Shown here: piece by piece, positions 11,273 to 41,305 of the stretch
Position numbering within the stretch: position 1 is the stretch's first letter
How the letters are laid out: the number at the start of each line of letters is the position of its first letter
Source of the DNA: Bacillota bacterium
Lineage (GTDB): Bacteria; Bacillota; Desulfotomaculia; Desulfotomaculales; Nap2-2B
Assembly (NCBI GenBank): GCA_040755215.1
Contig: JBFMBG010000002.1
Coordinates: 16,974 to 80,973, forward strand
DNA length: 64,000 nt
Direction: 5' to 3'
The notes under the pieces: model-generated
The model's database searches: none
The model's input: only the letters and a program-made list of their open reading frames with translations
What the model was told of the DNA's origin: nothing
Translations under genes and position numbers: made by a program

Positions 11273-11275
11273 AAA

Positions 11276-17434: not shown

Positions 17435-17445
17435 CTTTCTGCGAT

Positions 17446-24938: not shown

Positions 24939-24964
24939 ACCCGGATTCGGTTCCGGGTTTTTTT
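24939..24964 (+). terminator. orphan plus-strand rho-independent terminator
   Basis: ACCCGGA-ttcggt-TCCGGGT stem followed by a T7 run. No annotated plus-strand gene lies upstream. Confidence 0.6.
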
Positions 24965-25047
24965 ATTGAAGAAAGTTTGCCGGCAATGCATAATTGTATT
25001 AAAGTAATAACTTAATATTATAGGCAAATTAGTACTTTACGAAATTG

Positions 25048-25067
25048 GTAATACACTTATGTATTAC
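25048..25067. promoter_or_regulatory. palindromic upstream activator site candidate (ATAC-N6-GTAT core)
   Basis: GTAATACActtaTGTATTAC, an 8-bp perfect inverted repeat. The core at 25051-25064 lies 43 nt upstream of the -24 element at 25108. Confidence 0.55.
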
Positions 25068-25107
25068 TATGTGGAAAACAATTGCTAAAAAACAATTACT
25101 TTAAAAT

Positions 25108-25123
25108 TGGCATTATTTTTGCT
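25108..25123 (+). promoter_or_regulatory. sigma54 -24/-12 promoter (P1)
   Basis: TGGCATTATTTTTGCT has GG-N10-GC spacing and matches TGGCAC-N5-TTGCW. It is 28 nt upstream of the ATG at 25151, with a GAGGTGA SD in between. Confidence 0.7.
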
Positions 25124-25150
25124 ATTTGAATTTTTTGAGGTGAGTTAAAA

Positions 25151-26638
25151 ATGCCACCTTCGTCATTGATAAATTTTCTTGAATCGAAATTTGCCCGGTC
25201 AATCCCGAACATGCAGTTGCCGATTAGGCCTGATGAGCCCTCGAGAGGGCTTCCGGACGGAGCAACGGTGGTTATTGTCGGCGGCGGCCTGGCGGGCAGT
25301 TGCTTTGCCCGGCTCCTGTTAATGCTTTGCCACAAGGAAAATAGACGCATTAACATCTATTTGGTGAATAGCACAGGCTGTAATTATTGTGGGGGCTTGG
25401 TAACTAATATTGCCCAAGAGGCAATGGAGCGTTTATATAAGCTAAACATAACAGACAATCTAGTGCTGGAAAAAATAAACTCCTTTGTTTATGTTAACAG
25501 AGAAGGTCATGTAAAAATTGAGCTGCCAACTCCGATTACCGCTACCTTGCGAACTAGTCGCTTTGGGGTAACTGGTTTTGACGATTCGATTAAGCATAGA
25601 ATACTTGAAGGAATGGAAGATTATACAAAAACATCCACCTTTACGCGCATCGAACCCACTATCGTCAAAAATATTATTCCGCCCGACGGCAAATCCAAAA
25701 AATGGCGGGTGGTTTTAAGCCGCCGCCGGCCGAACGGGTCTCCGGACGAATTATCAGCCGACCTGGTTGTCTTGGCAGCGGGATTTAATTCTTTGGACAA
25801 ACCAATGATCAACCGTTATATGCAAAGTACCGGATTTAAACCTCCGCCTGTACTCCGCGCTTGCGTTACGGAGATAGATACTTCTACTGCCAGATATAAC
25901 CGCGTAGGCCAACATGTATATATGATCGACGGAATCGTCCCGGGTTCTATTCTGGCTTTTATTCCCAAAGGTAAAAATTGGTTAACCTTGACTTCCTTGA
26001 ACAAAGTGCTGAGCTTTGAAGATCTGGAAACTTTATTTAACCATCCAGTTGTGAAGGAAATTATTGACTTGCCCAACCCGGCAGAATGCTTGCGCTGCCA
26101 TGTAATTTGCCCGTCTTTTGTTTTTACCGGTCCATCGCGGCATTTTTACGGTGATGGTTGGGTAGCCGTAGGCGATTTAGCAGGATACGGCCGGGTTTTA
26201 AAAGACGGTTACTTTGCAGCCTTTGTTGGTGCATGGTACGCGGTTCACACAGTTTTTTACCACGGGACCTCCCGCGCTCACTTTGAGCGCCACTATCATG
26301 GCCCCTTGCGCCGGTTTAATCGAGAAAACCTCCTTGGAATTAAGCTTTTCAACTTTAATATGTTTATTGGTCGGCAAAAATGGTTCAATCGTTTGCTTCT
26401 GGCCGCAGCAAAGGAGGAGCGGCAAAAAAACCCTTACGGTTGGGCTATCCACGCTGCTTTTCGGAGCCTCCAGACTGGTCTTTTACCCTATCTGCTTATA
26501 TGCTTACTTTTTGTGGTAGGTGTTTTTCGTTACGTCCTACGTCACCCTTTTCAAGCATGGAGAATTTTTTTTGCAGAGACAGGGAAAACCGCGGCAAAAG
26601 CAAAAAAATCCTTATCGGCTGCACGAAAGATTATTTAA
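25151..26638 (+). CDS. FAD-dependent oxidoreductase with C-terminal membrane helix (function unknown)
   Basis: 495 aa. VVIVGGGLAGSCFARLL dinucleotide-binding motif, GDGWVAVGDLAGY (GD motif), CNYCGG Cys pair, hydrophobic LLPYLLICLLFVVGVF near the C-terminus. The gene is visibly AT-richer than its surroundings. Confidence 0.55.
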   Translation: MPPSSLINFLESKFARSIPNMQLPIRPDEPSRGLPDGATVVIVGGGLAGSCFARLLLMLCHKENRRINIYLVNSTGCNYCGGLVTNIAQEAMERLYKLNITDNLVLEKINSFVYVNREGHVKIELPTPITATLRTSRFGVTGFDDSIKHRILEGMEDYTKTSTFTRIEPTIVKNIIPPDGKSKKWRVVLSRRRPNGSPDELSADLVVLAAGFNSLDKPMINRYMQSTGFKPPPVLRACVTEIDTSTARYNRVGQHVYMIDGIVPGSILAFIPKGKNWLTLTSLNKVLSFEDLETLFNHPVVKEIIDLPNPAECLRCHVICPSFVFTGPSRHFYGDGWVAVGDLAGYGRVLKDGYFAAFVGAWYAVHTVFYHGTSRAHFERHYHGPLRRFNRENLLGIKLFNFNMFIGRQKWFNRLLLAAAKEERQKNPYGWAIHAAFRSLQTGLLPYLLICLLFVVGVFRYVLRHPFQAWRIFFAETGKTAAKAKKSLSAARKII

Positions 26639-26710
26639 AACCTGAATCCGTGATACCATCTCACCAATAACCATTTTCAGGCATAAGATTCAGGTAAAGC
26701 TTTCGGGAGC

Positions 26711-28303
26711 TTACTCCGGAGGAACAATCAGAGCCAGGGCGAAAACAAATAAGAAAACTACAATCAAAAAGAGATTCAGGCCAAGTAATCCGAACTGAAA
26801 AAGCCAGGTGAACCCGGCGAGGACGGTAAGCATGCAAAGAAACGCGCCAGCCAGGGCGCTCAGGGCAACCACCTTTCTCCACGGGGAAAGGTTTCTCGCC
26901 GGTTGCCATTGATCGGCCCTTTCCACCAAAGTCACCGCCACCAGGGTAACAATATTCATGGACATTCCGAAAAATACCGGGTGAATGTGCAGGTAAAAAT
27001 TCGCCGGGTCCCAGCGGCCCAGGGAATACCACGTCAATCCGCCTAGAAAACCGGTAACCATCGCCGCCACCGCCGCCCGGCGGGTGGCCAGCGGCCAGAA
27101 CAGGGTGGCCACCACGGGGGCAAAGGTGGCGCCGTTCCGCAGCGTCCAGGCCAGCACGTTCCACCAGGCTGCCTGCTCGCTCCGGAGAAGGGCAAGGACG
27201 ATGACCATGGCGGTCAGCAACACCAGGGACCACCTGGTGTAGGCAACTTTTTGCGCGTCGGCCAGACCCGGTTTCACCGCTTCCGCAAAATCCCTGCCCA
27301 GGCTGGTGGAACCGGAGAACTGGCAGGGCGCCCCCCAACCCAGGGCACAGGCCCAGACGCCCATAAAAAACAATCCCACCAGGGGAGGGGGGAGAACCCG
27401 ACCCAGGTAAACCGGGACGCCGACCATCCCGCCCCGGTAACCGGGCGCTGCCGCAGCCGCCGCCAGGCCAAATAAAATGCCCAGGGAAATAAAAATTGCA
27501 TCGGCGGCAAAAGCCATCAATAAACCCCTGCGCCCCTCCTCCGGAGTCCGGCAGGACAGGGCCATCTGAAAGGCCGCCTGCGCCGCCAGCACGTTAATCA
27601 AAAAGGTGGCAAACCAGGCAATAATCAATTGCAATCCTACGCCGTCCAGGCTAAACATCTCCGGCCGGGTCCTGGCCAGGTGCGCCAGTCCGGCAGGGCC
27701 GGACCCGACGAAAAAGGCGTAGATTCCTACGCCGAACATCAGGACAAACGCAACGTTGTTGGCCGTCTGGGTGGCAACCACCGACCACATCCCCCCGACC
27801 TCAAGAAAAATCAACAAAAGCAAGGCGCTGATGGTTACCGTTACGGGCAGCGAGAAATCGGTAAAAACATCCAGGGCGACGGCGAAGGAAAGGGTATTGG
27901 CAACCGTCCACATGGGGAAGGTCAAGCCGGTAATTGCTCCGGCCACCCCTAAGGCGAGCCTGCCGAAGCGGTCACCGATCAGGCCCGAGATAGTGATCAT
28001 CAGGCGGCGGCGCAGGTTGCCGATCAGCAAAAGAGCAATAATCAGCACGTGCACCATCTCGGCCACCCCGTACCAGCCAGCGGAGATCCCTTTTGCATAG
28101 GATAGTTCAAGAATAGAAATGTAGGAAGAACCGGAAAAAAGACCGGTGGTACAGACAAAAACCATCCAGGCCCGAAAAGATCTCCCACCCACCCAAAATC
28201 CTTCCCCGTCCCGGGCCCTGCTTTTCACAATGTTGCCGAGGATAATCAGGACGGCTGTATAAAATACGGCCATTCCCAGTATCCATGCTCCGCAGGGATT
28301 CAT
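26711..28303 (-). CDS. sodium:solute symporter (SSS) family transporter
   Basis: 530-aa polytopic ORF. The N-terminal GEGFWVGGRSF motif and overall pattern are typical of the SSS family. Confidence 0.7.
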   Translation of the reverse strand: MNPCGAWILGMAVFYTAVLIILGNIVKSRARDGEGFWVGGRSFRAWMVFVCTTGLFSGSSYISILELSYAKGISAGWYGVAEMVHVLIIALLLIGNLRRRLMITISGLIGDRFGRLALGVAGAITGLTFPMWTVANTLSFAVALDVFTDFSLPVTVTISALLLLIFLEVGGMWSVVATQTANNVAFVLMFGVGIYAFFVGSGPAGLAHLARTRPEMFSLDGVGLQLIIAWFATFLINVLAAQAAFQMALSCRTPEEGRRGLLMAFAADAIFISLGILFGLAAAAAAPGYRGGMVGVPVYLGRVLPPPLVGLFFMGVWACALGWGAPCQFSGSTSLGRDFAEAVKPGLADAQKVAYTRWSLVLLTAMVIVLALLRSEQAAWWNVLAWTLRNGATFAPVVATLFWPLATRRAAVAAMVTGFLGGLTWYSLGRWDPANFYLHIHPVFFGMSMNIVTLVAVTLVERADQWQPARNLSPWRKVVALSALAGAFLCMLTVLAGFTWLFQFGLLGLNLFLIVVFLFVFALALIVPPE

Positions 28304-28389
28304 TTTTTTAACCTCCCTTCGGAGGGATCAACAATGGACTGTAAGGTTACCTGTCTTTCTCGAGCCCGTACCGGAATACCCCCGCTCTC

Positions 28390-29571
28390 CTAAACGAGAA
28401 AAAGAACCACAAAGTAAATAATCATCAAGGCCATTCCAAAGGGCACCCCCAGGCAGGCCCATTCCCGGCTGCCGATTTTCAGCTTGCTGGCGGAAACGAT
28501 ATTGGGAATGTTGCCGGGGATGAGCATCCCCCCGCTGATTAATAGCCCCATCAGGATGGCCTGGATTTGCTGGGAAGTCATTTTCGCGCTGATTTCCGCC
28601 GCCGCCAGGGTGGCGTTGTCTAAAACGGCAGAAATCATGTTTACCCAGTAAAGCAGGCGGCTGTCGAAGTAGATTACATAGGTATCGATGACCGGTTTAA
28701 AACCGGCGCCGAGCAGTTCTAAGGCCATCACAAAGACGAAAATTTTTACCGCCCGGATCACCACCCCCTGGTAAGATTCCTTTTCCACTGTTTCCTCCGC
28801 TTCTTTTACGGCGGCTCTTTCTGCGGTTGCCGCCACTGGACTGGCGAACGCCCCGCCCTGCCAAGCCGGGTCCTGATCCCTCCCTTCGTTTCTCCCGGCA
28901 ACCCTGGTAACGGTAGGGAGACTTTCCACCTGCTCCGGCGCCTTAATCACAACGTCCCCTTTCGCCGGACGCCCACGCGCTACGTAATAAGCCCCAAACA
29001 GGCCGGTGGCCAGCACGCCGGGAATAATAAACCAGCCTACCTCCCCCAGGAGGTACCAGAAGCCGGCGTTCAGCTTAGAAACGGTGATGGTGGAAAGGGG
29101 TTCCCCGATGGGCGTAAGCGCGGCCCCCAAACCAATTGAAAAACAGGCGATTATGTCCAGATTCACTTTGTCCTTGCGGGAAAGCGGCAGAACGCTGATT
29201 ATTTCCACCAGCACCAAAGAGGCGATGATGGCGGTGATGACACTAGAGAACAAACCCAGGGTAACCGTAATGAAAAAGATAAAAACTTTCAGAGGGACAT
29301 ATTTCAGGATGGCCGCAACGGCCCCCTGCACTTTTTCTTTCCAGATTTTAAACAAAAGGCCGGCAATGAGAACGGCGCCGGTAATCATATACATAAAATG
29401 GTTTTCCAAAATTTCGATGAGCAGTTCTTTCCCCAAAACGCCGGAGACGATGGTCGCCGCCAGGCCCATGATGAAAAGAAAAGGCTCCAGGTTGTGCTCA
29501 ACCTGCTTTAAAAGAAAGGGGAGGGTCAAAACCAGGAGCAAGATAATTAACAAACCAATAACCATTTTCAA
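28390..29571 (-). CDS. polytopic membrane protein, possibly DUF1646-type cation transporter
   Basis: 393 aa with many TM helices. The N-terminus LPFLLKQVEHNLEPFLFIMG resembles DUF1646, from memory only. A hydrophilic central loop is present. Confidence 0.4.
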   Translation of the reverse strand: MKMVIGLLIILLLVLTLPFLLKQVEHNLEPFLFIMGLAATIVSGVLGKELLIEILENHFMYMITGAVLIAGLLFKIWKEKVQGAVAAILKYVPLKVFIFFITVTLGLFSSVITAIIASLVLVEIISVLPLSRKDKVNLDIIACFSIGLGAALTPIGEPLSTITVSKLNAGFWYLLGEVGWFIIPGVLATGLFGAYYVARGRPAKGDVVIKAPEQVESLPTVTRVAGRNEGRDQDPAWQGGAFASPVAATAERAAVKEAEETVEKESYQGVVIRAVKIFVFVMALELLGAGFKPVIDTYVIYFDSRLLYWVNMISAVLDNATLAAAEISAKMTSQQIQAILMGLLISGGMLIPGNIPNIVSASKLKIGSREWACLGVPFGMALMIIYFVVLFLV

Positions 29572-29623
29572 GTCCTCCTGTAAATAGATTGAAACTGAGG
29601 GTGGGAAAGTTAAATCACCCTTT

Positions 29624-29653
29624 CAAAAAAATTATCCACGCCGGGTGGATAAT
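29624..29653 (-). terminator. rho-independent terminator after the anion permease gene
   Basis: 9-bp stem ATTATCCAC/GTGGATAAT with a 5-nt loop. On the minus strand it is followed by T7, 42 nt after the stop at 29695. Confidence 0.7.
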
Positions 29654-29694
29654 TTTTGCCTAACCCAATAAATTTTTATCTCTCTCGGAGAGCA

Positions 29695-31209
29695 TTATAA
29701 ATTCTGCCAGAATTGGAGATTAAAGTGCAACACAGTCCCCCAGAACAGCCACGATACAAGCCCGCACGCAAGAGCACAGAAAAAGCCGTAGAGAGGCAAG
29801 CGCCAGGAGGCCTTCCCTTCCAGAGCGATCGGAAGGGCCATCGTTCCTGTAGCTGCCGGAACCATGAAAGAAAAGTTTACTGTATATCCCATCATGAGCA
29901 GCCACGGAATTGGGTTTACCCCGGCAGCTTTTGTCGCCGCTCCCACTATCGGGGCCAGCATTCCGGCGGCACCGGTATCCGAAGCAATATTACCCATGAA
30001 TAGACAAAAGGCGACAAATATGCCCGTCCCCGTGTAAGCCGGCAAATTCCAGTATGTCCCCAGGAACTGTGCCATTAACTTGCCGGCACCCGTCATGGTA
30101 ACGAGGGCTGCAATGCTCATCGCTGTGGGCCAAAGGAGAAAGGCATGAATGGGAAAGACCTTAACGGCATTAATGCTCAGGAGTCTTTCGCCCGGCTCGT
30201 ATTCAAACGGCTTGCCTTTCGGAGCCCCTGCGTCCGGAGCAGGCAGCAAAGCGAGGATACCTGTTACAACCGCGAAAATTAAGGAAGGGCTGATGTTTAC
30301 TCCTTTAGGCAGGTAAGGCCTCCATAACGGCTCTAAAAAGGGCATGGCTACGGCCAACAGGAAAATGATAAAGCCCCACTTCTCCGAACCTGTGATCGGG
30401 CCCATCTTTTTTAGTTCTTCTTCGAAGTATTCGTGAGATCCTTCAAAATGCTTGCGATCGATCGGAAAAACGGCGGCAAATAAAATGGCCACGGGGATCA
30501 TGCTCAGAAAAACGGGAAGCACCAGTGTAGCTGTGTAACTGGCCATGGCAACAGGCCTCCCGAGAGTGTCAACCAGTTGCTGCCAGGTTATGACGGCCTG
30601 GCCGCCGGCCATCGGAGTCAAGAAGCCACCCAGGGAAGCACCAATAGCTACAGCAATAATGATGAGCATCGCACTTGCGCTGTTTTTCAATTTCTGACTG
30701 GAATCATAACCCACGTACTTGAGAATTTCGAGGGCAATCGGGGTAAGGGCAATGGCGATGACAGTATTTGCCGCTATAAAACTGATTATTGTAGAAAACA
30801 TTACCCAGACAACGGCCTGCGCCCTGACGGAAGTACCGACCCACTTCAGGCAGAACAACGCCATCCGGCGGGTCAGGCCCCACCTCGTCCACATGCAGAC
30901 GATCAGGGCCGGACCCAGTAACATCCCGAGACCCGGGTGAATAACTGTCTTGGTTATCTGTCCCCAATCCATGCCGGGAAGGAAAGCGGTTCCCAAAAGC
31001 GGAATGAAGATCGTATACCCTGTCGGTATTATCCCTGTCGCCCAGTACCAGGCACACCAGACAATAATTGCTAGCCCGCCCCGGGCAGTAACGCTTCCGA
31101 TAGGCAGCGCGAATAGAATAATGAAGTACAAAATGGGGCCGACCGCCAGGGTGATCCATTCCAGAACGGTTTTATCAAACCCCAAGATCCTTACCGTCTT
31201 TGTTCCCAA
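29695..31209 (-). CDS. ion-transporter superfamily anion permease (SLC13/DASS-like; sulfate or dicarboxylate)
   Basis: 504-aa polytopic ORF. SLGGFLTPMAGG resembles the DASS/ArsB-NhaD hairpin motif. The sulfur-gene context is noted, but the substrate is unproven. Confidence 0.55.
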   Translation of the reverse strand: MGTKTVRILGFDKTVLEWITLAVGPILYFIILFALPIGSVTARGGLAIIVWCAWYWATGIIPTGYTIFIPLLGTAFLPGMDWGQITKTVIHPGLGMLLGPALIVCMWTRWGLTRRMALFCLKWVGTSVRAQAVVWVMFSTIISFIAANTVIAIALTPIALEILKYVGYDSSQKLKNSASAMLIIIAVAIGASLGGFLTPMAGGQAVITWQQLVDTLGRPVAMASYTATLVLPVFLSMIPVAILFAAVFPIDRKHFEGSHEYFEEELKKMGPITGSEKWGFIIFLLAVAMPFLEPLWRPYLPKGVNISPSLIFAVVTGILALLPAPDAGAPKGKPFEYEPGERLLSINAVKVFPIHAFLLWPTAMSIAALVTMTGAGKLMAQFLGTYWNLPAYTGTGIFVAFCLFMGNIASDTGAAGMLAPIVGAATKAAGVNPIPWLLMMGYTVNFSFMVPAATGTMALPIALEGKASWRLPLYGFFCALACGLVSWLFWGTVLHFNLQFWQNL

Positions 31210-31727
31210 TTCCAGTCACACTCCTTTTCCCGTTTTTAAAGGTGTACAATTATTCACTTTTCTTTTTTAGCATGTACTATCATTCACTTTTTAGCCAGTA
31301 CTTATCCTTCTAAAACTCCTTCCCGCGTCATTTTAAACCATAAGCTTTTTCAAAACCCATTTGCCTGGATATTTCTTTCGGACCATTCCCACCCCGCTTT
31401 GACTTTCGACTTGTTCATTACCTTGTTTTGTTATTCTGCCTATTGCATTCTTAATCTGTACCGGGTATTGGTGGAAGGAGTTTAATTAACCCCGGGCCCC
31501 GACATGCGGATTATTTACCATCCAGGAGAGGCAATTCAATAAACTGACGGGGAAATAGATCCGGTTATGTGCCGGGGCCTCAGGATTAATATTAAAAAAG
31601 CAGCGCATTGAAACATGAGATTGAGGGAAGAGGGGATTTTTATTTGGATTTTGCGCTGCCAATACCAATTCCCAATCCGCCTTTCCTGGCCAGAGCCTGG
31701 CAAAAACGGGCAGGCGAACTTTAATTC

Positions 31728-32573
31728 CTACATGTAACCCAAAGCCCGCAGCCTGGCCATGGCTGCTTCTTTGTCCTGGCGCCGGCCGGCCCGCTCCACC
31801 GTATTTTCCAGGTCCTGCTCCCAGGCCGGGAGGTCGGACATCTTCGTAGTTGTGGTCTTGGCCCCGAGAGAACGGTAACCCTGGGCGTAAAGGGAAACAA
31901 ACGGAAGTTTGAAGTGGTGGTAAATATCCCACAGGGCCCGTTCGCTGATGTGCAGAATCGGCCGGATGCGCACCTGGGCCGGCTGCAGGTACTGCGCCGC
32001 CACTTCTTCAATATACGGATCGTCAGCCCTGACCGGCTGCTCGTCCCAGCGCAATCCCTGGACGATTACCTTCACGTTATTTTCTTCCAGGTAAACATTC
32101 AGGGCTACCGACTTCATTAAGTGGTTCCCGACAAAGGATTCGGCCTCAAACGGGAATCTTTCCAGTTCCCCGAACCCGATCCGCTTGATTTCCTCGCGGT
32201 TCCGCTCGTTGAGATCCTTAACCCAAACGTCGGCACCCAACGTATAGTTGCAGGCTCTCAACACGTCCTCGTTTTTCGCCACTTCGAGGACAACGCCCCA
32301 TTCCTTGCTCATTTTGGCCAGGAACTCTTCAGCTTCTTCAAAGGTATCTCCTTCGTCAATGGTAACAGCCTTAGGCATCTCAAAGCCGTATTCCTTGCAG
32401 GTCTCCCGCCAGATCCAGAGGGTCAGGGTGCTGTCCTTGTGGCCGGACCAGACCAGGCGGATATTCTTGGGGTCAAACTGCCGGTATGCTTCCCGCACGA
32501 TATTCTTGGAGATATGAATGTATGTTTCCAACTCCTGGATTCTTTCTTTGCTTAATGGTTTGCCGTTCGGCAT
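31728..32573 (-). CDS. PAPS reductase/CysD-superfamily ATP pyrophosphatase-like protein
   Basis: 281 aa. PP-loop variant WSGHKDST, later QGYRSLGAKTTT, and C-terminal ERAGRRQDKEAAMARLRALGYM, as in the CysD/PAPS-reductase family. Confidence 0.7.
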   Translation of the reverse strand: MPNGKPLSKERIQELETYIHISKNIVREAYRQFDPKNIRLVWSGHKDSTLTLWIWRETCKEYGFEMPKAVTIDEGDTFEEAEEFLAKMSKEWGVVLEVAKNEDVLRACNYTLGADVWVKDLNERNREEIKRIGFGELERFPFEAESFVGNHLMKSVALNVYLEENNVKVIVQGLRWDEQPVRADDPYIEEVAAQYLQPAQVRIRPILHISERALWDIYHHFKLPFVSLYAQGYRSLGAKTTTTKMSDLPAWEQDLENTVERAGRRQDKEAAMARLRALGYM

Positions 32574-32609
32574 TCTTATTGCACCTCCGTATGACTTATG
32601 CTCTTAAGG

Positions 32610-33824: not shown

Positions 33825-33909
33825 GGGCGTACCTCTTCTCTTTTGATCAGTAACAACAAGGGGGAAGGGAGAGGAGGGAGAAAGTTTCCCCCTCCTTTTT
33901 TCCGGTTAA

Positions 33910-35256
33910 TTATTCCACGATATAGCCCAAAGCGCGCAGGCGGGCTTCGATGGCTTTCTTCTCTTCCTCCGGCATCTCCCGGCGGACAATTCCCTTGGGT
34001 TCGGCGCGGTAATAATCGTTGCATTGTTCGCGCAGCTGCTGCAACCACTTAGGCGCGTGGAACTTGAGCCGGTCGATCAGATTATTCTGCTCCAGAGGAT
34101 CTTTCTTCAAATCAAAGAACTCTTCATACATCGAAGAGGCGTACCGGATGTATTTCCAGTTTTCCTCCCGCAGGGCCTGTCTTGCCCCCATTCCATAAAC
34201 GGACCAGACCGTTTCGGCGTAGGCACGCTTGCCGTGCCCTCTTAATTTTTCCATGCACGGAACCAGGCTCTCGCCGTCCAGGGGCACTTCCACCTTATCC
34301 AAAATCCCCAGGAGATCCATGATGGTGGGCATAATATCAATAGACCTTACCTGGCCTTCGATTCTTTTCCCGATGCATTGCGGCGGCAGGTTGGGGGCTT
34401 TAATGATGAGCGGAATTTTCAAATCTACATCGTAAAGGCTGGAGTGCGTGTTCGGCAAATCGCCCAAATCGACGGGGTCGTAGATATAATCACCGAAGGG
34501 CCAGCATTCGTTCCGGAGGGTAGTCCCGTGATCGCCGGTGATGACGATCAGAGCGTCGTCGTAATAGCCGACTTCTTTGAGGGTGGCGATTACGCTGCCG
34601 ATGACTTCTTCGTCGGCCAGCTTGATTTTCGCGTCGTAATAGGCGTTTTCAGGCATTTCGCCTTCCTTGATGCGGCCGGAACGGACCAGGTATTCTTCCG
34701 AACCGGTATGGGTTTCGTAGAACTGGTTGTAAAGGTAGAAGGACTTGCCTTCGGCAGCGCATTGCTTGATAAATCTGATGTTGTCGTCAACGTATCTTTT
34801 GCCTACAGGCTTGGCGTGAAATCTTCCGTCCACGTTAACCCCCAGGGCCTGCCAGTGCTCTACGCCGTCGCCCCAGGTGTCGGGAGCGTTCGGGTCGGTG
34901 GGCTCGATGAATATATCGAAACCGTTGTTCATGCCAATCCCGGAACCGGCCACGCTCTGGCTCATGCACCCCTGGGTCGCCCAGCCCAGGTATTTTTTGA
35001 TATACTCCTGAAGCAGGGGCGGGCAGACGACGTGGAAGGGATCCCGGACGCCGGTATGCGGCCCGATCATGCCTGTCCAAAGGACCGGCGTCGCCGCTCC
35101 CGTATAAGAACTGCCGGAAATAACCGTGGCAAACACTACCCCTTCCCTGGCAAGCGCCTCAATGTTTTTTTGCCGGCGGTAGTATCCGTTCACGGAAAGG
35201 TGATCCGCCCGCACTTCGTCGAACTGAAAAACGTAGACGCATTTTGGCTTTCGCAC
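33910..35256 (-). CDS. sulfatase-like alkaline-phosphatase-superfamily enzyme (Thr at nucleophile position)
   Basis: 448 aa (GTG start). FDEVRADHL and GDHGTTL motifs. The nucleophile region reads SYTGAATPVLWTG rather than C/S-x-P-x-R. Confidence 0.7.
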   Translation of the reverse strand: MRKPKCVYVFQFDEVRADHLSVNGYYRRQKNIEALAREGVVFATVISGSSYTGAATPVLWTGMIGPHTGVRDPFHVVCPPLLQEYIKKYLGWATQGCMSQSVAGSGIGMNNGFDIFIEPTDPNAPDTWGDGVEHWQALGVNVDGRFHAKPVGKRYVDDNIRFIKQCAAEGKSFYLYNQFYETHTGSEEYLVRSGRIKEGEMPENAYYDAKIKLADEEVIGSVIATLKEVGYYDDALIVITGDHGTTLRNECWPFGDYIYDPVDLGDLPNTHSSLYDVDLKIPLIIKAPNLPPQCIGKRIEGQVRSIDIMPTIMDLLGILDKVEVPLDGESLVPCMEKLRGHGKRAYAETVWSVYGMGARQALREENWKYIRYASSMYEEFFDLKKDPLEQNNLIDRLKFHAPKWLQQLREQCNDYYRAEPKGIVRREMPEEEKKAIEARLRALGYIVE

Positions 35257-35397
35257 TTTTCGTTACCCCTTTCTTGTTATGATTTAACTCGCAAGATTTT
35301 CAAATTCAAGAACCAATGCCAAGAGCAACCGCCAACCTAATCACCTTCCTTTATTCGTTTTTTATTTCACTTTCGTTGCCTGCAATCTATTGTCAAG

Positions 35398-35413
35398 TGC
35401 AAAAAACATACCA
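35398..35413 (-). promoter_or_regulatory. sigma54 -24/-12 promoter (P2)
   Basis: The minus strand reads TGGTATGTTTTTTGCA (GG-N10-GC), 142 nt upstream of the sulfatase-like gene start at 35256. Confidence 0.65.
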
Positions 35414-35456
35414 GACATGAAAAACAATATTTTTTTAGCAATTCTATCGATGACTA

Positions 35457-35470
35457 ATACACTCTTGTAT
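35457..35470. promoter_or_regulatory. palindromic upstream activator site candidate
   Basis: ATACactcttGTAT, 43 nt upstream of the TGG of P2. Confidence 0.5.
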
Positions 35471-35544
35471 CAAAATGATTGTAATTCTCGGAGCAATATC
35501 CTTAAACACCTGGTTAGTCACAGCCAATACAACAATGCATTAGT

Positions 35545-35562
35545 CGATACTTTTTTGTATAA
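35545..35562. promoter_or_regulatory. palindromic upstream activator site candidate (distal)
   Basis: CGATACttttttGTATAA, same ATAC-N6-GTAT core, about 133 nt upstream of P2. Confidence 0.45.
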
Positions 35563-35747
35563 ATTGTTCGTTATTCTCTCTTTCTCCGGTGCCTCCCGTC
35601 CTTCCGAAATAACTTCCCATTCACGTTCTGCCTGGTGCTCATTGACGTATTACGTGGCCAAAGCTTCTCATTAACCCGCATTCCAGACGGGAAATTAGGT
35701 GACCTACTCTAGATAGTCAGCGTTTACGATACCGGGGCGCGATCCAT

Positions 35748-35802
35748 TAAAAAAGAAAAGCCCTGGTCACCGACGGAATTTGGCATTTAATGCGACCAGG
35801 GC
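35748..35802 (-). terminator. rho-independent terminator after the sat operon
   Basis: Perfect 9-bp stem GCCCTGGTC/GACCAGGGC with an internally structured 25-nt loop. On the minus strand it is followed by TTTTCTTTTTT, 70 nt after the stop at 35872. Confidence 0.65.
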
Positions 35803-35871
35803 ACCAGGGAGTAGGTAAGTTATGGCCTGAAACTTGTGGAAAGAAGCTTCCTTATAGGTTGCAAGATTATT

Positions 35872-36162
35872 TTAATAATCCTTCAGGAAATCTTCCATTA
35901 CATCCAGGCTGGCTTTTTCCACGATTTTATTAAAGATTTTGTCTTTCACGTCCCTGGGCAGCAATTCGATGCTCTTGGTGGTCGCCGAATCGTATTTCGC
36001 GGTGGGGAACACCTTCAAAACCCTGTCCTTTTGCTCTTCCGTGCAGGGAACTTTAAGCACTTTCAAGCCGGCCAGCTGCTCCTCGGCCATGTCCGCCAGA
36101 CCTACCTTCTGCAGCTTGGCGAGCCTTTCTTCGTTAATCCAGATATTGATTACGATACTCAT
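35872..36162 (-). CDS. hypothetical 96-aa protein downstream of sat
   Basis: The ORF starts 11 nt after the sat stop and ends before the terminator. I recognise no family. Confidence 0.4.
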   Translation of the reverse strand: MSIVINIWINEERLAKLQKVGLADMAEEQLAGLKVLKVPCTEEQKDRVLKVFPTAKYDSATTKSIELLPRDVKDKIFNKIVEKASLDVMEDFLKDY

Positions 36163-36173
36163 TTCGCCACCTC

Positions 36174-37436
36174 CTAAAACTTCATTTCCGGCAAGGTAAA
36201 CACAGGATTTCTATCCTGCAGGTATTTATCCGTCACGAAGGCCGAGCCGAAACCGTATTTCTCGGCACATTCCATAATCAGGTCGAACACTTCGGGTCTG
36301 AAGATCAGGCGAGGTGGCTTCACACCATCCTGGATGATGCTCCTGATCAGCGTGCCGCTGAAGTTCTGGCTCTGCGCTTTATGGCCGCACAACCCCGAAT
36401 AGGTGACTTCGGCACAAACGGGGCAGTACCACCAGGCCAGCACCCGCACCGGTTTAATCCGCAGGTCGCTTTCCGGAATCTGGTCGAAGATCCGGTGCGC
36501 ATCGTAAGGATCGTAGTACGTGCCCACGCCGGCGTGGTCCCGGCCGAACATGTGGTGCGTAAGGCCCAGATTCGTCCTCAAGATGGCGTGGAAAACGGCT
36601 TCCTTCGGCCCGGCGTAGCGCATATCCCAGAGGGTGATGGAGGTGAGGTGGACGTCCTCCCGGAAATAGCCCGCTTTGCGCAGCACGTCGTGGCACAGGA
36701 CGATGGCTTCGTCGATGTAGTCGCCCTTTCTCTTTTCGCCGATAATGGCGTTGACGAGCACGCCCGTAACCGTTTTTTCCACCGGCAGCTCGCCGTGGGC
36801 CTGCAGCCAGGAACCCTTCATCAGCCACTCGTGCCCGGTATGCGGGACGTTTCTGGTCTGGTGGGCGACAATCCGCTGCCAGCCTTTTTCGGCGAATTTT
36901 TGCCGGAGCTGTTTAGGGGTGAAGAAGAATTCGTCAAACGGAGGGTTGATTTTGGGCGGATTAACCAGGGTGACCTTCCCGCCGAGGAACTTATCCTTGT
37001 ACTTGTACGTCCTGGCCACTCCCGGGTGCTTTTCTTCCGTGGTGCCGTAAACTTTCTGGGCCATTTCCTGTTTGTCGTAGGTAAAGATTTCCTCGACTTC
37101 CAGAATGGCCATCGGCTTGTCCTGGTAGGTTAAGAGGACCTTGTCCCCTTCTTTAATTCCCTTTTCGTTGATTTCCTGATCCGACAGATCGAAAACGATC
37201 GGGATGGGCCAGAGGACGCCGTTGGCAAGGCGCATCTCCTTACAGACCCGGCCCACGTCTGCTCTGGTCATAAAACCTTCCAGGGGGGTAAAAAACCCGT
37301 ACGCAATATCGATAATTTCTCTGGCGATCTGGCCGCGGATGGGCACCGGCGTAAGTCCTTTGATTGCCCGGGCCGCCTCTTCCGGCGCCATTACTCTTTC
37401 GACAAGCTCTTTGCCGCCATGGCCGATATTACTCAT
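36174..37436 (-). CDS. sat: sulfate adenylyltransferase (ATP sulfurylase, homo-oligomeric type)
   Basis: 420 aa with QTRNVPHTGHEWL (QxRNxxHxxH) and FGRDHAGVG motifs. GGAAGGAG SD upstream. Confidence 0.9.
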   Translation of the reverse strand: MSNIGHGGKELVERVMAPEEAARAIKGLTPVPIRGQIAREIIDIAYGFFTPLEGFMTRADVGRVCKEMRLANGVLWPIPIVFDLSDQEINEKGIKEGDKVLLTYQDKPMAILEVEEIFTYDKQEMAQKVYGTTEEKHPGVARTYKYKDKFLGGKVTLVNPPKINPPFDEFFFTPKQLRQKFAEKGWQRIVAHQTRNVPHTGHEWLMKGSWLQAHGELPVEKTVTGVLVNAIIGEKRKGDYIDEAIVLCHDVLRKAGYFREDVHLTSITLWDMRYAGPKEAVFHAILRTNLGLTHHMFGRDHAGVGTYYDPYDAHRIFDQIPESDLRIKPVRVLAWWYCPVCAEVTYSGLCGHKAQSQNFSGTLIRSIIQDGVKPPRLIFRPEVFDLIMECAEKYGFGSAFVTDKYLQDRNPVFTLPEMKF

Positions 37437-37477
37437 CTCACTTCTCCTTCCCTTTCAAAATGTGCTTTTGGGGCGAA

Positions 37478-37696
37478 TCAACCGTTCGCTTCGTGCCTGA
37501 TTTTGCTTTGTTTTTTACATCCATAATCTTTTGGAGACAGCCTGTCCTGGACAGATTCATTGTCCCCTTGGGAAGAAGTTCTTTCTTTTTTCGAATTGTT
37601 TCTAAGAAGGACTTCTGCCCTATACATTTCTGCCCTAAAGAAAGGCTCTTCCAGCGCTTTCAAAAACCACGCGTGAATTTTTTTAGCGGAAACCAT
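37478..37696 (-). CDS. hypothetical 72-aa basic protein (start inferred)
   Basis: Internal ATG of ORF 37478..37747, preceded by AAGGAGA at 7-nt spacing. It fills the gap between the exported-protein gene and sat. No family recognised. Confidence 0.3.
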   Translation of the reverse strand: MVSAKKIHAWFLKALEEPFFRAEMYRAEVLLRNNSKKERTSSQGDNESVQDRLSPKDYGCKKQSKIRHEANG

Positions 37697-37716
37697 ACCA
37701 ACATCTCCTTGATAAC

Positions 37717-38532
37717 TTATTCTCTTTTTATACCTGGCAACCGGCAAATTAGCTTCTCAAAAAAGCGAAACAGGAGATCGATGAGCAAGCCGGCCAGCAA
37801 GGCAATAAAAACAGCGTAAGTACCGTATAAAGGACCATTTGTTTTCGCCATTTTGCGTATCCAGCCGGCAACCCCCGTCGGCTGGATAATCAGCGGGCTC
37901 TCGCTTTGGCCGATCACGCGGCCGTCCCTGATGGCGTAAGCGGTTATGGTCGTCTCCCCGTACGCCGCTTCCGCGGGTATTCTAATCAACGCCGAAAAGC
38001 TCTGCCCTCCTTTTTCTTCTTTTGTGAACAGGGATTTTTCCTGAACAACGTACAGGCCTTTTTTCTTATACAGGCCAACCAAAGCATCAACGTATTCTTT
38101 ACCCTCCCGGGCCGGCAAATCTTTGGTTTTTCCTCCGGTTGCAACGATAACCGTGGCCCGGTCGTGAACGGCGGCAAAATTGCCGTCCAGGCCCGTGTCT
38201 TTCCGAAGCGAAGGCGGCAACCGGTCAATTTCCGCCGAAGTGTAGATTTGATACATTTTAGGCACATTTACCACTTCCGCCTGCGCTACATTCATCCACA
38301 AAAAGCCGACTTTCCCTTTTTTATTTAACCTCTCTTTCCTCCCCGGCGATACCATCTTCAGATAAATGTCGCACTGCGCAGGAGCAGTGCCCGAAATATT
38401 AACGACAGCTCCTTTAAAACCCAGCCCCACCGCAATTACTCCGGGGTCGGGAGCCACGCGAATCTCCTGGGCAAAAGCAGCCGGCACGCCCGCCCCGAAG
38501 ATAAGACAAAATACGAGCAGCCCAACCTTCAA
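37717..38532 (-). CDS. exported protein with C-terminal membrane anchor, translationally coupled to tauE
   Basis: The ORF track runs to 38931 through tauE in another frame. I trimmed to the TTG at 38532, which overlaps the tauE stop and has GGGGGGAGG upstream. This yields signal peptide LKVGLLVFCLIFGAGVPAAFA and a C-terminal TM helix YAVFIALLAGLLIDLLF. Confidence 0.5.
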   Translation of the reverse strand: MKVGLLVFCLIFGAGVPAAFAQEIRVAPDPGVIAVGLGFKGAVVNISGTAPAQCDIYLKMVSPGRKERLNKKGKVGFLWMNVAQAEVVNVPKMYQIYTSAEIDRLPPSLRKDTGLDGNFAAVHDRATVIVATGGKTKDLPAREGKEYVDALVGLYKKKGLYVVQEKSLFTKEEKGGQSFSALIRIPAEAAYGETTITAYAIRDGRVIGQSESPLIIQPTGVAGWIRKMAKTNGPLYGTYAVFIALLAGLLIDLLFRFFEKLICRLPGIKRE

Positions 38533-39437
38533 TGGCCTCCCCCCAAAACGATCAGTGATGCGGGGGCTGCGAGTAAATTGTGAAGCATCTTGACCATTAC
38601 GCCGAGAACGATGACCGAAAAAAAGATGCGCAGCTGTTCTCCTTTCAAAAGGCGACCGAGGCGCGCCCCCACCTGGGCTCCGACCGCCGAGCCGAGGAGC
38701 AAAAGGAGAGCCAGCATAACGTCGACGGTTTCGTTGATAATCGCCTGGGCAAGAGTTACGTTTACAGCGGTAAAAATCACGGTGAAAAGACTGGTGCCTA
38801 CCGCCTTGTGCGTGGGAATTCCCAAAAGGTAGATCATTACCGGCAACATGATAAAACCGCCGCCAACGCCCATTAAAGCCGCCATGACGCCGATAAAAAA
38901 CCCGAGCGCAAATAAAACGATCACCGAACATTCAATTTTTGAAACAGGGAAGAAAAGCCTTCCCGGCAAAGATTTGGCCAGGTAGAACGGCCTGCCGGCC
39001 AAAGAGTCGGCGCTTCCTTTCCCCCGCAAGGCACGCAAGCTCTCCGCAAACATAAACGCTCCTACAAACAAAAGCATAACCACATATACCAGCGTTACGA
39101 TCAAATCAAAATTGCCCAACTGGCGCAATATCTTTACTCCTGTTGCGCCCAGCGTTCCTCCCGTCAGTCCGCCGAGGAGCATGATATAGCCGAGCTTGAA
39201 ATCAACGTTGCCTGCACGGCCGTGGGCCAGCGTACCGGACACGGAAGCAGCAACAATCTGGTTGGTATCGCTGGCCGCCGCCACCGCCGGCGGAATACCG
39301 ATCATCATTAAAAGGGGGGTGAGCAAAAACCCCCCGCCGACTCCAAATAAGCCAGACAGCATTCCTACCACGCCCCCCAGGCTAAAAATTAAATAGGTTT
39401 TGATCTGCACGCCCGCCACAGGCAAAAATATTTCCAT
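38529..39437 (-). CDS. TauE/SafE-family sulfite/organosulfonate exporter
   Basis: 302 aa with duplicated 4-TM halves, each carrying the GVGGGF(L/I) motif typical of TauE/DUF81. Confidence 0.8.
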   Translation of the reverse strand: MEIFLPVAGVQIKTYLIFSLGGVVGMLSGLFGVGGGFLLTPLLMMIGIPPAVAAASDTNQIVAASVSGTLAHGRAGNVDFKLGYIMLLGGLTGGTLGATGVKILRQLGNFDLIVTLVYVVMLLFVGAFMFAESLRALRGKGSADSLAGRPFYLAKSLPGRLFFPVSKIECSVIVLFALGFFIGVMAALMGVGGGFIMLPVMIYLLGIPTHKAVGTSLFTVIFTAVNVTLAQAIINETVDVMLALLLLLGSAVGAQVGARLGRLLKGEQLRIFFSVIVLGVMVKMLHNLLAAPASLIVLGGGH

Positions 39438-39455
39438 TTTTTTCGACTCCCCACT

Positions 39456-39899
39456 TCATGAAGCACGCTGAATCAGTTTTCCAGCAGTTTTCTTCCCGGG
39501 TTTCGGCAAGTCAATTGCCTGGTGTTGAAGGGACAGCCTAAAAACGTAATGTTCTACCAGCAGATTATAACTTTCCATGGCCAGACCCAGGACCAGCAAA
39601 AGCAAGAGCATCACTCCGTAGGGGAAAAGCTGGACATCCCGGTTATTTTTGTCGTAGAGCTTCCCGGAAACATCCGCCCAGGTGTAAATTTCCATGGTAT
39701 CCGGGTCTTGCTCCACGATGATATGGCGAGAAGGGTTAAAGTAATTTTTAAACAGACTTTCCCGCAAGCAATTAACCCCTGCCCAGAAAACCAGGAAAGC
39801 AAAAACGGCTACAGCCACAGCGACAAGTTTCGATAACGTCTTTAATTTTTTCTTTTCGTCCTGATTCAGGCTGAGGATGATTTGGTCCATGACACCCAC
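39456..39899 (-). CDS. hypothetical two-TM membrane protein
   Basis: 147 aa with two hydrophobic helices (LVAVAVAVFAFLVFWAGV, VMLLLLLVLGLAM); sits directly upstream of tauE. Confidence 0.45.
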   Translation of the reverse strand: MGVMDQIILSLNQDEKKKLKTLSKLVAVAVAVFAFLVFWAGVNCLRESLFKNYFNPSRHIIVEQDPDTMEIYTWADVSGKLYDKNNRDVQLFPYGVMLLLLLVLGLAMESYNLLVEHYVFRLSLQHQAIDLPKPGKKTAGKLIQRAS

Positions 39900-39978
39900 T
39901 CCTTTTACTTCTGTTTATTATTATTTTCATAAGTTATAATTTTCGCAAAAATCAATTTAATATAGATTAAAAGGTTTT

Positions 39979-40605
39979 TTATTTGACTCCCAATCTATTT
40001 AAAGTGTTTTTGGTGATCAAGATAAAGTTGGCGAGTTTCAAAGAGACAGAAGCGATCTCACGCCGCTCTACGACCGCAAAAGGCAAAAACAATTTAAAGC
40101 GGTATTTTCCGGTAGCTTCTACCGAAGGCAATTCACGTTCGATGACTTCGCCCAGCTCCCTTTCCATCTCTTTTTTTAAATTTAACAGGGGCAAGAAAAC
40201 CTGCCTTTTCTGGCCGTCCATGACGAGATCAATAAATAAAAGGTTTTCACCCTGAGGAACCCTTTTTCGGGGTCGGGTCCTCCCAATGCGGTAGTATATG
40301 TTTTGATTCTCAAAAACCCGGATGCATTTCCACGATTCCTTAAAGCCCATCCGCCGGTTGGGAAAAGTGTAGAGGATTTTCACCCCTAAACCGCCAAGCA
40401 AGCGTTCAGCATGGCTCAATACGCTATTCAAAAAACCATCGAAATCCCCCTGGCGGGGCGACTCTTCTTCGCCTTTCGCCCTTTCTTCCGCCAGCCAGCT
40501 CTTAAAACGACGAAACAGCTTCCAGTAGACCGACCCTTCTTTGTCTTTCTCCGAAAGCATCCCGCTGTGTTTTCCGTAACTTCCGGCAAGCTCCTGATTA
40601 GTCAC
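39979..40605 (-). CDS. hypothetical 208-aa protein, first gene behind sigma54 promoter P3
   Basis: GTG start after a GGGGGAAGGA purine tract. No family recognised. Confidence 0.45.
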   Translation of the reverse strand: MTNQELAGSYGKHSGMLSEKDKEGSVYWKLFRRFKSWLAEERAKGEEESPRQGDFDGFLNSVLSHAERLLGGLGVKILYTFPNRRMGFKESWKCIRVFENQNIYYRIGRTRPRKRVPQGENLLFIDLVMDGQKRQVFLPLLNLKKEMERELGEVIERELPSVEATGKYRFKLFLPFAVVERREIASVSLKLANFILITKNTLNRLGVK

Positions 40606-40664
40606 TTTCCTTCCCCCTGGAAAAAAGCAAAGCAGAAAGGCTTATGTTCGTTAAATTAAAACTA

Positions 40665-40680
40665 TGCAAAAAGCATGCCA
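40665..40680 (-). promoter_or_regulatory. sigma54 -24/-12 promoter (P3)
   Basis: The minus strand reads TGGCATGCTTTTTGCA (GG-N10-GC), 60 nt upstream of the start at 40605. Confidence 0.7.
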
Positions 40681-40722
40681 CAATGAAAGACCCGGAATTT
40701 CCCGGTTTTTGGGCAAGATTTA

Positions 40723-40736
40723 ATACAATAATGTAT
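40723..40736. promoter_or_regulatory. palindromic upstream activator site candidate
   Basis: ATACaataatGTAT, 42 nt upstream of the TGG of P3. Confidence 0.5.
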
Positions 40737-40787
40737 CAATAACTGCTATTTTCTCCTTATTTGACAGCAAAAATCAAAAAAAGGGGT

Positions 40788-40802
40788 GATACATAAATGT
40801 AT
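40788..40802. promoter_or_regulatory. palindromic upstream activator site candidate
   Basis: GATACataaatGTAT, in the P3/P4 divergent region. Confidence 0.45.
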
Positions 40803-40973
40803 TGGGCCAGCAAATAACCGCATCATTACCTTGCCATTCCGGCCAAGGCATTTAAAATTTCCTCCGGTTGCGTATGGAAATTAACGATACAGAAAAAATA
40901 TAGACGATGCATTTTTTTATTGAGCTTTCTTCGGCTTGTCTCCAGGCATAGTAAAGATTGTGCCAAAAAGCAC

Positions 40974-40991
40974 GATACCTTTCTGTATCGG
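40974..40991. promoter_or_regulatory. palindromic upstream activator site candidate
   Basis: CGATACctttctGTATCG, a perfect 6-bp inverted repeat. The core lies 41 nt upstream of the TGG of P4. Confidence 0.55.
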
Positions 40992-41030
40992 TCATTTAAA
41001 AAAATAAAGGATTATTCTTGCCTTTTCCCC

Positions 41031-41046
41031 TGGTACATTTCTTGCA
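41031..41046 (+). promoter_or_regulatory. sigma54 -24/-12 promoter (P4)
   Basis: TGGTACATTTCTTGCA (GG-N10-GC), 47 nt upstream of the TTG at 41093, with an AAGGAGG SD at 41077-41083. Confidence 0.65.
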
Positions 41047-41092
41047 AAAACGGATTTAAAGTGAAAAATAGCACATAAGGAGGTAATTTTCA

Positions 41093-41287
41093 TTGGGTGG
41101 TATTATCGGGCTGATCGGCGGCTACGGGGCAGTTTTGCTTTGTCTTGCGATCATAGTGCTGATGGACAATGTTTACCATAACATGTGGGCGGCGGGAATT
41201 GTCGGCTCCCTCGCCAGTCTCTTGGTGTGGGGAATCACGATGTGGATTATTTTCTCATCGGCGAAAAAGAAGGAAAAAACTTTATAA
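41093..41287 (+). CDS. 64-aa two-TM micro-membrane protein
   Basis: TTG start 9 nt after AAGGAGG. Two hydrophobic helices and a KKKEKTL tail. It has its own sigma54 promoter and terminator. Confidence 0.5.
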   Translation: MGGIIGLIGGYGAVLLCLAIIVLMDNVYHNMWAAGIVGSLASLLVWGITMWIIFSSAKKKEKTL

Positions 41288-41305
41288 TAACTTACCTTAT
41301 GGAAT

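Follow-up and report, generated by a model that had tools for sequence, protein, structure and literature searches.

The window analysed here, a 64-kb stretch of contig JBFMBG010000002.1 from a Bacillota bacterium, contains an 18-kb genomic island that carries a putative sigma-54 regulon. The island lies between rpsO-pnp on one side and ribF-truB-nrnA-infB on the other, and its G+C content is 49.9%, against 56.7% in the flanks. All of its open reading frames (ORFs) in the window are intact, and neither an integrase nor a transposase gene is present in it. Three of its intergenic regions (36–40% G+C) hold four sigma-54-type promoters, P1 to P4, each accompanied by palindromes with the core ATAC-N6-GTAT, and one island gene encodes an enhancer-binding protein (EBP), called the activator below. 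The regulatory features are given here in window coordinates, with palindrome gaps counted in nucleotides (nt) to the TGG of the promoter concerned.

25108–25123, plus strand: P1, sigma-54-type -24/-12 promoter (TGGCATTATTTTTGCT), with the ATG 28 nt past the promoter's last base
35398–35413, minus strand: P2, sigma-54-type promoter (TGGTATGTTTTTTGCA)
40665–40680, minus strand: P3, sigma-54-type promoter (TGGCATGCTTTTTGCA)
41031–41046, plus strand: P4, sigma-54-type promoter (TGGTACATTTCTTGCA)
24986–24999: distal site for P1 (ATGCATAATTGTAT), one mismatch (ATGC arm), 108 nt upstream of the P1 TGG
25051–25064: proximal palindrome for P1 (ATACACTTATGTAT), 43 nt from the TGG
35457–35470: proximal palindrome for P2, gap 43 nt
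35527–35540: distal site for P2, one mismatch (ATGC arm), gap 113 nt; perfect at the equivalent position of a close island variant (L005)
35547–35560: distal palindrome for P2, gap 133 nt
40723–40736: proximal palindrome for P3, gap 42 nt
40789–40802: distal palindrome for P3, gap 108 nt
40975–40988: proximal palindrome for P4, gap 42 nt
41382–43130, minus strand: activator, an EBP of the order (PAS)-PAS-AAA+(GSFTGA)-HTH (helix-turn-helix), directly downstream of ribF
41306–41387: inverted repeat with 19-nt arms (95% complementary) and a 44-nt loop, separating the convergent genes for the 64-aa protein and the activator

The four GG-N10-GC promoter sites were found with exactly the coordinates and sequences given in an earlier note on this DNA. 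The pattern TGGYAY-N5-TTGCW, which was fitted to the four promoters themselves, matched P1–P4 and nothing else in the window, all within the three island intergenic regions (four matches against 0.17 expected, with 0 of 100 shuffles reaching four). Compared with the canonical TGGCAC-N5-TTGCW, three of the promoters carry one mismatch and one carries two. Each is oriented toward a gene, with 28–141 nt between the promoter's last base and the start codon, and ribosome-binding sites are present at the downstream genes. Sigma-70-like matches occurred at chance level.

The same note had described six ATAC-N6-GTAT palindromes at a near-fixed distance from the promoters. All six are present, the P4 copy being located at 40975–40988 and not at 40976–40989, and the near-fixed spacing stands with values of 43, 43, 42 and 42 nt for P1 to P4 in place of 41–43 nt. 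Six copies in the 64-kb window compare with 0.14 expected, a count that none of 100 shuffles attained, and all six lie at most 150 nt upstream of P1–P4, in the three island intergenic regions. The objection that such palindromes might simply recur in AT-rich sequence does not hold, as shuffling of these three regions yielded 0.05 palindromes against the six observed and 0 of 5000 shuffles of them reached the observed count. The 45 kb of the window outside the island contained no palindrome, and neither did 141 kb of related loci without an activator orthologue. Together with the two one-mismatch sites listed above, eight sites accompany four promoters; the distal P1 site resembles the proximal P3 site over 18 nt, and upstream of P4 only a degenerate half-site near 130 nt was seen besides the proximal palindrome. 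Eight other one-mismatch sites in the window are attributed to chance, since they lie away from any promoter and their spacers are mostly G+C-rich.

Apart from the -24/-12 elements and the palindrome, no other motif is common to all four promoters. A 23-nt element (AATTGCTAAAAAA-CAAT...) is common to P1 and P2, at 25080–25102 and 35421–35443, in the same orientation and between the proximal palindrome and the -24 element, and A-tracts occupy the corresponding position in P3, P4 and the orthologous promoters. The 23-nt element and the A-tracts could represent an intrinsic bend or a second binding site. Origin of the palindromes from a mobile repeat of the MITE (miniature inverted-repeat transposable element) type was rejected, the promoter regions having no extended similarity beyond the motifs and the 23-nt element. 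A near-perfect palindrome (CCGGAATTTCCCGG) was also observed at 40692–40705, in the interval from the proximal P3 site to the -24 element of P3, with one mismatch in L005.

The activator most likely starts at the GTG at 43130, giving 582 aa. The longer, 595-aa ORF had no exact-sequence database match, which this probable start would explain. The activator's Sigma54_activat domain (PF00158) is full-length (E = 8.9e-70), and matches to AAA_lid_14 and, at the C-terminus, to HTH_50 and HTH_8 were also obtained; the GAFTGA-type loop reads GSFTGA, as in homologues. The earlier assignment of two PAS domains is secure for the second (residues 145–252, above the Pfam threshold), the first having only a weak PAS_4 match (E = 0.029). 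The recognition helix of the HTH domain (ITQPTVVRKAHKYG) is identical among the activator orthologues. The three closest database relatives are 99, 75 and 74% identical; the next matches are at most 63% identical, and the closer ones among them span only about three quarters of the query. A search of genome contigs with the activator returned only a relative without the island and an unrelated EBP of Tissierella. Identity with PrdR (NCBIfam NF041552, the best NCBIfam match) was rejected, as the score of 442.8 bits is under the curated cutoff of 795, and there are no prd genes nearby. None of the palindromes lies upstream of the activator gene, which is therefore probably not autoregulated. The inverted repeat at 41306–41387 is probably a bidirectional terminator, and if it leaks, transcription from P4 would run antisense into the activator gene.

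For comparison with relatives, contigs L001 and L002–L004 (activator 74–75% identical) and L005 (a 96%-identical variant of the island) were used. The contigs of the three closest activator relatives all have the order activator, small membrane gene, divergent promoters, 208-aa gene, TauE, Alph_Pro_TM, 72-aa gene and sat. The L001 activator likewise follows ribF, which indicates that the island has occupied this chromosomal position for some time. In L001, L002 and L005 the GG/GC of the promoters and the palindrome arms are kept where the spacers and flanks have diverged, and the proximal gap of 42–43 nt recurs at the P3-equivalent of L001, the P4-equivalent of L002 and all promoters of L005. 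The P2 region of L005 has three perfect palindromes with gaps of 42, 113 and 133 nt; this contig, 96% identical to the window elsewhere, has no sat-DUF6955 (5640–5716, against window 37604–35575), and its 72-aa gene abuts the P2 regulatory region. A still closer view of loss is given by L006 (MAG124, JBFLZY010000027.1, 10001–10760 against window 24645–42598), in which the flanks are 95–97% identical and the whole island is gone. What remains there are the first ~200 codons of the activator after ribF and three short scrambled scraps of the 208-aa and SSF genes, so that the island was ancestral in this lineage and was later deleted.

Homologues of the island's target genes also occur beside regulators of other types. 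Neither the palindrome nor a strict -24/-12 site is present beside them in L011 (GerE-type regulator), L012 (LacI), L014 (GntR) or L015 (Desulfotomaculum copahuensis, with a histidine kinase and a response-regulator EBP). A candidate -24/-12 site (TGGCATGGAAACTGCA) was noted in L015 at 18830–18845 on the minus strand. The palindrome therefore goes with the activator and is not tied to the target genes, as would be expected of the activator's binding site.

As the sites are kept with activator orthologues and absent beside other regulators, they are read as a real, locally confined regulon of a PAS/AAA+/HTH EBP. The proposal of the earlier note that this single island protein drives all four promoters through the palindromes is borne out as far as sequence can tell: its Sigma54_activat domain is complete, the sites are kept at 42–43 nt in the contigs with 74–75% identical orthologues, and the palindrome follows the activator. 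Taken with the site statistics and the linkage of the genes, this argues for a self-contained sigma-54 regulon in the island with a probability of about 0.8. Binding, activation, the signal and the chemistry we infer. The one-component activator, the HTH of which is of the Fis/TyrR type, would bind (T/G)ATAC-N6-GTAT(C/T) palindromes as dimers, the proximal site lying ~50 bp before the -24 element, with its centre at about -76 relative to the predicted start, and one or two more at about -140 to -167. A cytoplasmic signal received at the PAS region would lead to the activator hexamer and to ATP-driven opening of the closed complexes of RNA polymerase and sigma-54 at P1–P4. More speculatively, the A-tracts between proximal site and promoter might supply the bend for a short loop, in a phylum without IHF.

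The genes of the four units, the operon compositions of which are as described in the earlier note, and the carrier genes beyond the P2 operon are as follows.

25151–26638, plus strand: P1 target, FAD protein (495 aa) with a geranylgeranyl-reductase-like fold and an invariant CxxCGG
26711–28303, minus strand: sodium:solute symporter (SSF) family carrier, membership of the P2 transcript uncertain
28390–29571, minus strand: DUF1646 membrane protein, its gene a 72% nt paralogue of the DUF1646 gene that follows qmo on L017, a contig described below
29695–31209, minus strand: DASS/CitMHS anion:Na+ symporter, preceded by a 520-nt gap
31728–32573, minus strand: PP-loop (SGHKDS) protein, PAPS_reduct family, last gene clearly in the P2 operon
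32610–33824, minus strand: sulfatase-fold protein, 404 aa, T-Q-A-G-F replacing C/S-x-P-x-R
33910–35256, minus strand: sulfatase-fold protein, 448 aa, T-G-A-A-T replacing C/S-x-P-x-R, first P2 gene
35872–36162, minus strand: DUF6955 protein, conserved sat partner, last P3 gene
36174–37436, minus strand: Sat (ATP sulfurylase), paralogue of the sat of the dissimilatory operon
37478–37696, minus strand: conserved 72-aa gene (MVSAKKIHAWFLKALEEPFF...)
37717–38532, minus strand: Alph_Pro_TM exported/membrane protein, likely start TTG at 38532, 271 aa
38529–39437, minus strand: TauE/TSUP-family permease
39456–39899, minus strand: 147-aa membrane protein, no family match
39979–40605, minus strand: 208-aa protein of a very rare family, first P3 gene
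41093–41287, plus strand: P4 target, two-helix membrane protein of 64 aa; its holin-like match is weak and under the Pfam cutoff

The predicted model of the P1 flavoprotein (pLDDT 92) has geranylgeranyl reductases as its closest fold, with a C-terminal helical region (residues ~353–494) and a hydrophobic stretch near residue 455. For the 208-aa protein, a single-sequence AlphaFold model reached a pLDDT of only 34, and a metagenome scan with the family alignment returned only three contigs from one sample, which makes the family too rare for wide footprinting. The gap of 520 nt before the DASS gene contained no convincing further -24/-12 site or palindrome, and an Rfam search of the island, this gap included, gave no match. 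A 29-nt direct repeat (TTTTTAAAGGTGTACAATTATTCACTTTT) and its 79% copy stand in tandem at 31233–31291, where this gene-free gap ends, 24–82 nt upstream of the DASS/CitMHS start, and may mark a separate control region of the transporter genes instead of read-through from P2. Elsewhere in the window, a restriction-modification-like cluster was observed at 3789–11272, with a 1106-aa protein (N6_Mtase/MmeI/Eco57I-type domains), a 588-aa protein without family and one of 414 aa that has an N6_N4 methylase domain.

The origin of the island sat was traced through related contigs. On L017, a 96-kb contig from a different metagenome, a 90%-identical Sat heads a sat-DUF6955-aprB-aprA-qmoA-qmoB-HdrC-like operon with DUF1646 downstream; there (10001–18893) and on L018, related contigs from other samples, DUF6955 stands between sat and aprB, a gene for a CCG protein comes after qmoAB, and a DUF1646 gene lies downstream. 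The nucleotide identity of the island's sat-DUF6955 to this operon is 82.5% and extends exactly over the two genes. At the protein level the island Sat is 90% identical to the operon Sat, with 90–98% identity across the Sat cluster, and members of the 90% cluster bear the name Desulfotomaculales bacterium. The accession number of a further Sat with 94% identity, MEW6274346.1, is near those of the window's own proteins; judging from these numbers, this second Sat probably comes from the same metagenome-assembled genome (MAG). By its sequence relationships the island sat is an added copy of the respiratory gene, and DUF6955 appears to be an accessory of dissimilatory sulfate activation that has gone unrecognised. 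On the evidence of database names and the contig of another sample, the host most likely belongs to the sulfate reducers of the Desulfotomaculales. The view that this regulon is unusual for sulfur assimilation, taken in the earlier note, loses its footing here, sat-DUF6955 being the paralogue of a dissimilatory sat-DUF6955-aprBA-qmoAB operon.

Roughly that framing, organosulfate scavenging or assimilation, would have the sulfatases free sulfate, Sat activate it and the PAPS-reductase-like enzyme reduce it to sulfite (PAPS, 3'-phosphoadenosine 5'-phosphosulfate). Pfam and NCBIfam do assign the Sulfatase, PAPS_reduct and ATP-sulfurylase families to these proteins, the homologous cluster has an arylsulfotransferase-like gene nearby in L011 and one of the sulfotransferase family in L014, and elsewhere the module adjoins regulators of small-molecule type (LacI, GntR). 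The enzymes themselves speak against it. Both sulfatase-fold proteins match Pfam Sulfatase and SGSH_C and keep the DHG metal-ligand motif, but Thr aligns to the S-G-P-S-R of 5g2v and the C-S-P-S-R of 6pt4, the Pro and Arg are missing as well, and the Thr substitution is conserved in L011, L012, L014 and all homologues examined. With Thr in place of the formylglycine Cys/Ser, the island proteins cannot, by their sequence, be formylglycine sulfatases, and no gene for a sulfatase-maturating enzyme is present in the island. A search with the PP-loop protein gave more than 2000 matches at E <= 1e-10, the best 120 of which, as listed, are 61–100% identical to it. In a 23-sequence alignment the protein has no invariant Cys and an invariant C-terminus (...R-x-LGYM), so the C-terminal catalytic Cys of CysH-type reductases (ECGLH-type motif) is missing, and the best PDB matches of its profile are eukaryotic FMN adenylyltransferases (FMNAT; E = 5e-13), ahead of CysH and CysD. 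Neither a sulfite reductase nor an APS kinase (APS, adenosine 5'-phosphosulfate) is present in the island, and its sat is of the dissimilatory-operon type. Organosulfate assimilation is accordingly considered improbable.

The module recurs in other loci. L014 carries a row of sulfatase-449, Sat, sulfatase-400, PP-loop protein, DUF6955, TauE, small membrane protein, sulfotransferase-family protein and DASS; L011 has sulfatase, PP-loop protein, TauE, small protein, Sat and DUF6955; and L012 has the minimal trio of Sat, sulfatase and PP-loop protein. The TauE proteins of L011 and L014 belong to another subfamily than the island's (no tblastn match at E <= 1e-5). Read from gene content, the P2 and P3 operons of the island encode one linked function, and the recurrence in three other loci points to an uncharacterised conserved module. 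The PP-loop protein (31728–31770) and the 448-aa sulfatase-fold protein (33910–33960) moreover end in a common peptide, (A/E)RLRxLGY(M/I/V), that is invariant across the distant genomes L014, L011 and L012 and suggests a joint docking partner or a mutual interaction. In L015 (D. copahuensis LYVF01000047.1, 15930–21443) an operon of TauE, Alph_Pro_TM and a homologue of the 208-aa protein adjoins the two-component sigma-54 activator, with a flavoprotein homologue (66% identity) 5 kb from the TauE operon; TauE, Alph_Pro_TM, the 208-aa protein and the flavoprotein would thus form a second sub-module. In the literature on DUF6955, on Alph_Pro_TM or on a sulfatase/PAPS-reductase/sat cluster, no description of the module was found.

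Under the proposed regulon, the signal would co-induce four units: from P1 the geranylgeranyl-reductase-fold flavoprotein with its CxxC; from P2 the two Thr-type sulfatase-fold enzymes and the FMNAT-like PP-loop enzyme, possibly reading on into DASS, DUF1646 and SSF; from P3 the 208-aa protein, 147-aa protein, TauE, Alph_Pro_TM, 72-aa protein, Sat and DUF6955; and from P4 the 64-aa membrane protein. The regulon may be a conditional accessory route in which sulfate or a related oxyanion is taken up and activated to APS, and the cargo enzymes may act further on APS or on a phospho- or sulfo-ester derived from APS. This physiological reading is tentative, perhaps correct but with the balance somewhat against it. 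A bolder and rather doubtful extension is that Sat, the Thr-type sulfatase-fold proteins and the FMNAT-like PP-loop protein (with DUF6955 and TauE-family/DASS carriers) constitute an undescribed APS-linked pathway of anaerobes, which could, for example, move a sulfuryl or adenylyl group between APS and an organic acceptor, or use aryl sulfates in an energy-conserving way via APS and reverse Sat. If so, the PAS activator would sense the pathway substrate, and the island would be a ready-made inducible handle for finding the chemistry.

The regulatory part has a competing explanation of its own, in which the promoters are real and the palindromes are operators of another protein (the 208-aa protein, or an unlinked repressor or bending protein), with the activator binding another sequence or acting from solution. 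The palindromes are indeed unusually close to the promoters, the 208-aa protein is without assigned function and co-occurs with the activator in L001–L005, and the 23-nt P1/P2 element is evidence of further conserved sequence in these regions. However, in their number, their dyad symmetry, their location upstream and their multiplicity (2–3 per promoter) the palindromes fit the enhancer sites of an AAA+ activator, no second motif is shared by all four promoters, and D. copahuensis has a homologue of the 208-aa protein and no palindromes, which leaves this explanation with little probability. That the sites are non-functional leftovers in the AT-rich spacers of a decaying island is close to excluded: the island appears dispensable, given its loss from L006, which keeps a 200-codon activator stump, and the loss of sat-DUF6955 from L005, yet neither the 100 whole-window nor the 5000 intergenic shuffles reach the counts, all island ORFs in the window are intact, and the sites are kept where the activators are only ~75% identical and the surrounding DNA is not kept.

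Several points weigh against the proposed activator-driven regulon and its physiological role. No rpoN was found among the 20 larger ORFs scanned outside the island core of the window. The P3-equivalent of L002 has an imperfect ATGC site with one mismatch at 42 nt, and at the P4-equivalent of L001 the sites are displaced, the nearest lying 55 nt (one mismatch) and 122 nt away. Of the four orthologous promoters of L001 and L002, three keep the proximal site at 42–43 nt, one of the three with one mismatch, so the spacing is strongly preferred and not absolute. Since the L005 island exists without sat-DUF6955, sat is not essential to the regulon. The proximal site is ~50 bp from the -24 element, which puts the upstream activating sequence near -76, whereas EBP sites in Clostridiales typically lie 100–250 bp upstream (PMC6615313). 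Finally, with sulfatase-fold and PP-loop enzymes of uncharacterised chemistry among the cargo, the physiological part is a guess.

Should the proposed regulon be correct, its interest would lie in several directions. How Gram-positive sulfate reducers regulate the uptake and activation of sulfate is almost unexplored, and no sat or sulfate-activation regulon of Bacillota appears in the published clostridial and cross-phylum surveys of sigma-54 that were consulted. With one activator, a 14-bp site and four promoters, the island is a compact, tractable system, in which a second dissimilatory-type sat is tied to carriers of disputed substrate (TSUP, DASS, DUF1646) and to an uncharacterised conserved enzyme trio. 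The inducing signal, once identified, would directly suggest the substrate of the enzymes and carriers, and the palindrome with its spacing rule can be used for finding further regulon members in the full genome.

Among known systems, the PrdR, AdhR and AcoR regulons resemble the island in having a regulator of PAS-AAA+-Fis-type HTH architecture whose gene adjoins its targets (Nie et al. 2019, PMC6615313). Clostridial EBP regulons in the same study also have several palindromic upstream sites before a TTGGCAT-N5-TTGCT-like promoter and are local, with one to six operons. Of the EBPs catalogued in Clostridiales, 65% control a single adjacent operon and the sites are mostly 100–250 bp upstream, whereas four units are assigned to the island activator. 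The motifs also differ, TGT-N10-12-ACA being common to 15 clostridial groups and the island having ATAC(A)-N4-6-(T)GTAT, and none of the 39 groups described controls sat or sulfatase-fold genes, as the island activator would. In the sulfate reducer Desulfovibrio vulgaris Hildenborough, which has many EBPs, operons of TSUP (TauE-family) permeases are repeatedly sigma-54-dependent and most promoters lie at most 100 nt from the nearest EBP site (Kazakov et al. 2015, PMC4641369), so that neither TSUP targets nor a short site distance is unprecedented. D. vulgaris belongs to a different phylum from the island's host, and its sigma-54 targets include no 'sat' and no sulfate-activation gene in the text searched (PMC4641369), unlike those proposed for the island. 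A cross-phylum survey of sigma-54 makes no mention of sulfate metabolism among Bacillota functions.

The cargo can be compared in the same way. With the dissimilatory sat-aprBA-qmoAB operon of Gram-positive sulfate reducers the island shares the sat-DUF6955 pair and the paralogue of the DUF1646 gene downstream of qmo; it differs in being without aprBA and qmo, in having sat at the end of a sigma-54-driven transporter operon and in the absence of sat from L005. The sulfatase-fold proteins resemble S1 sulfatases in their Sulfatase and SGSH_C fold and the DHG motif, and differ from them in the Thr at the nucleophile position and the lack of Pro and Arg, while the PP-loop protein has the PAPS_reduct fold and SGxxDS loop of CysH-type reductases without their C-terminal redox Cys. 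The switch is of a textbook type, whereas the genes that it would control are poorly understood, and the module of Sat, Thr-type sulfatase-fold and PP-loop proteins is the more novel part.

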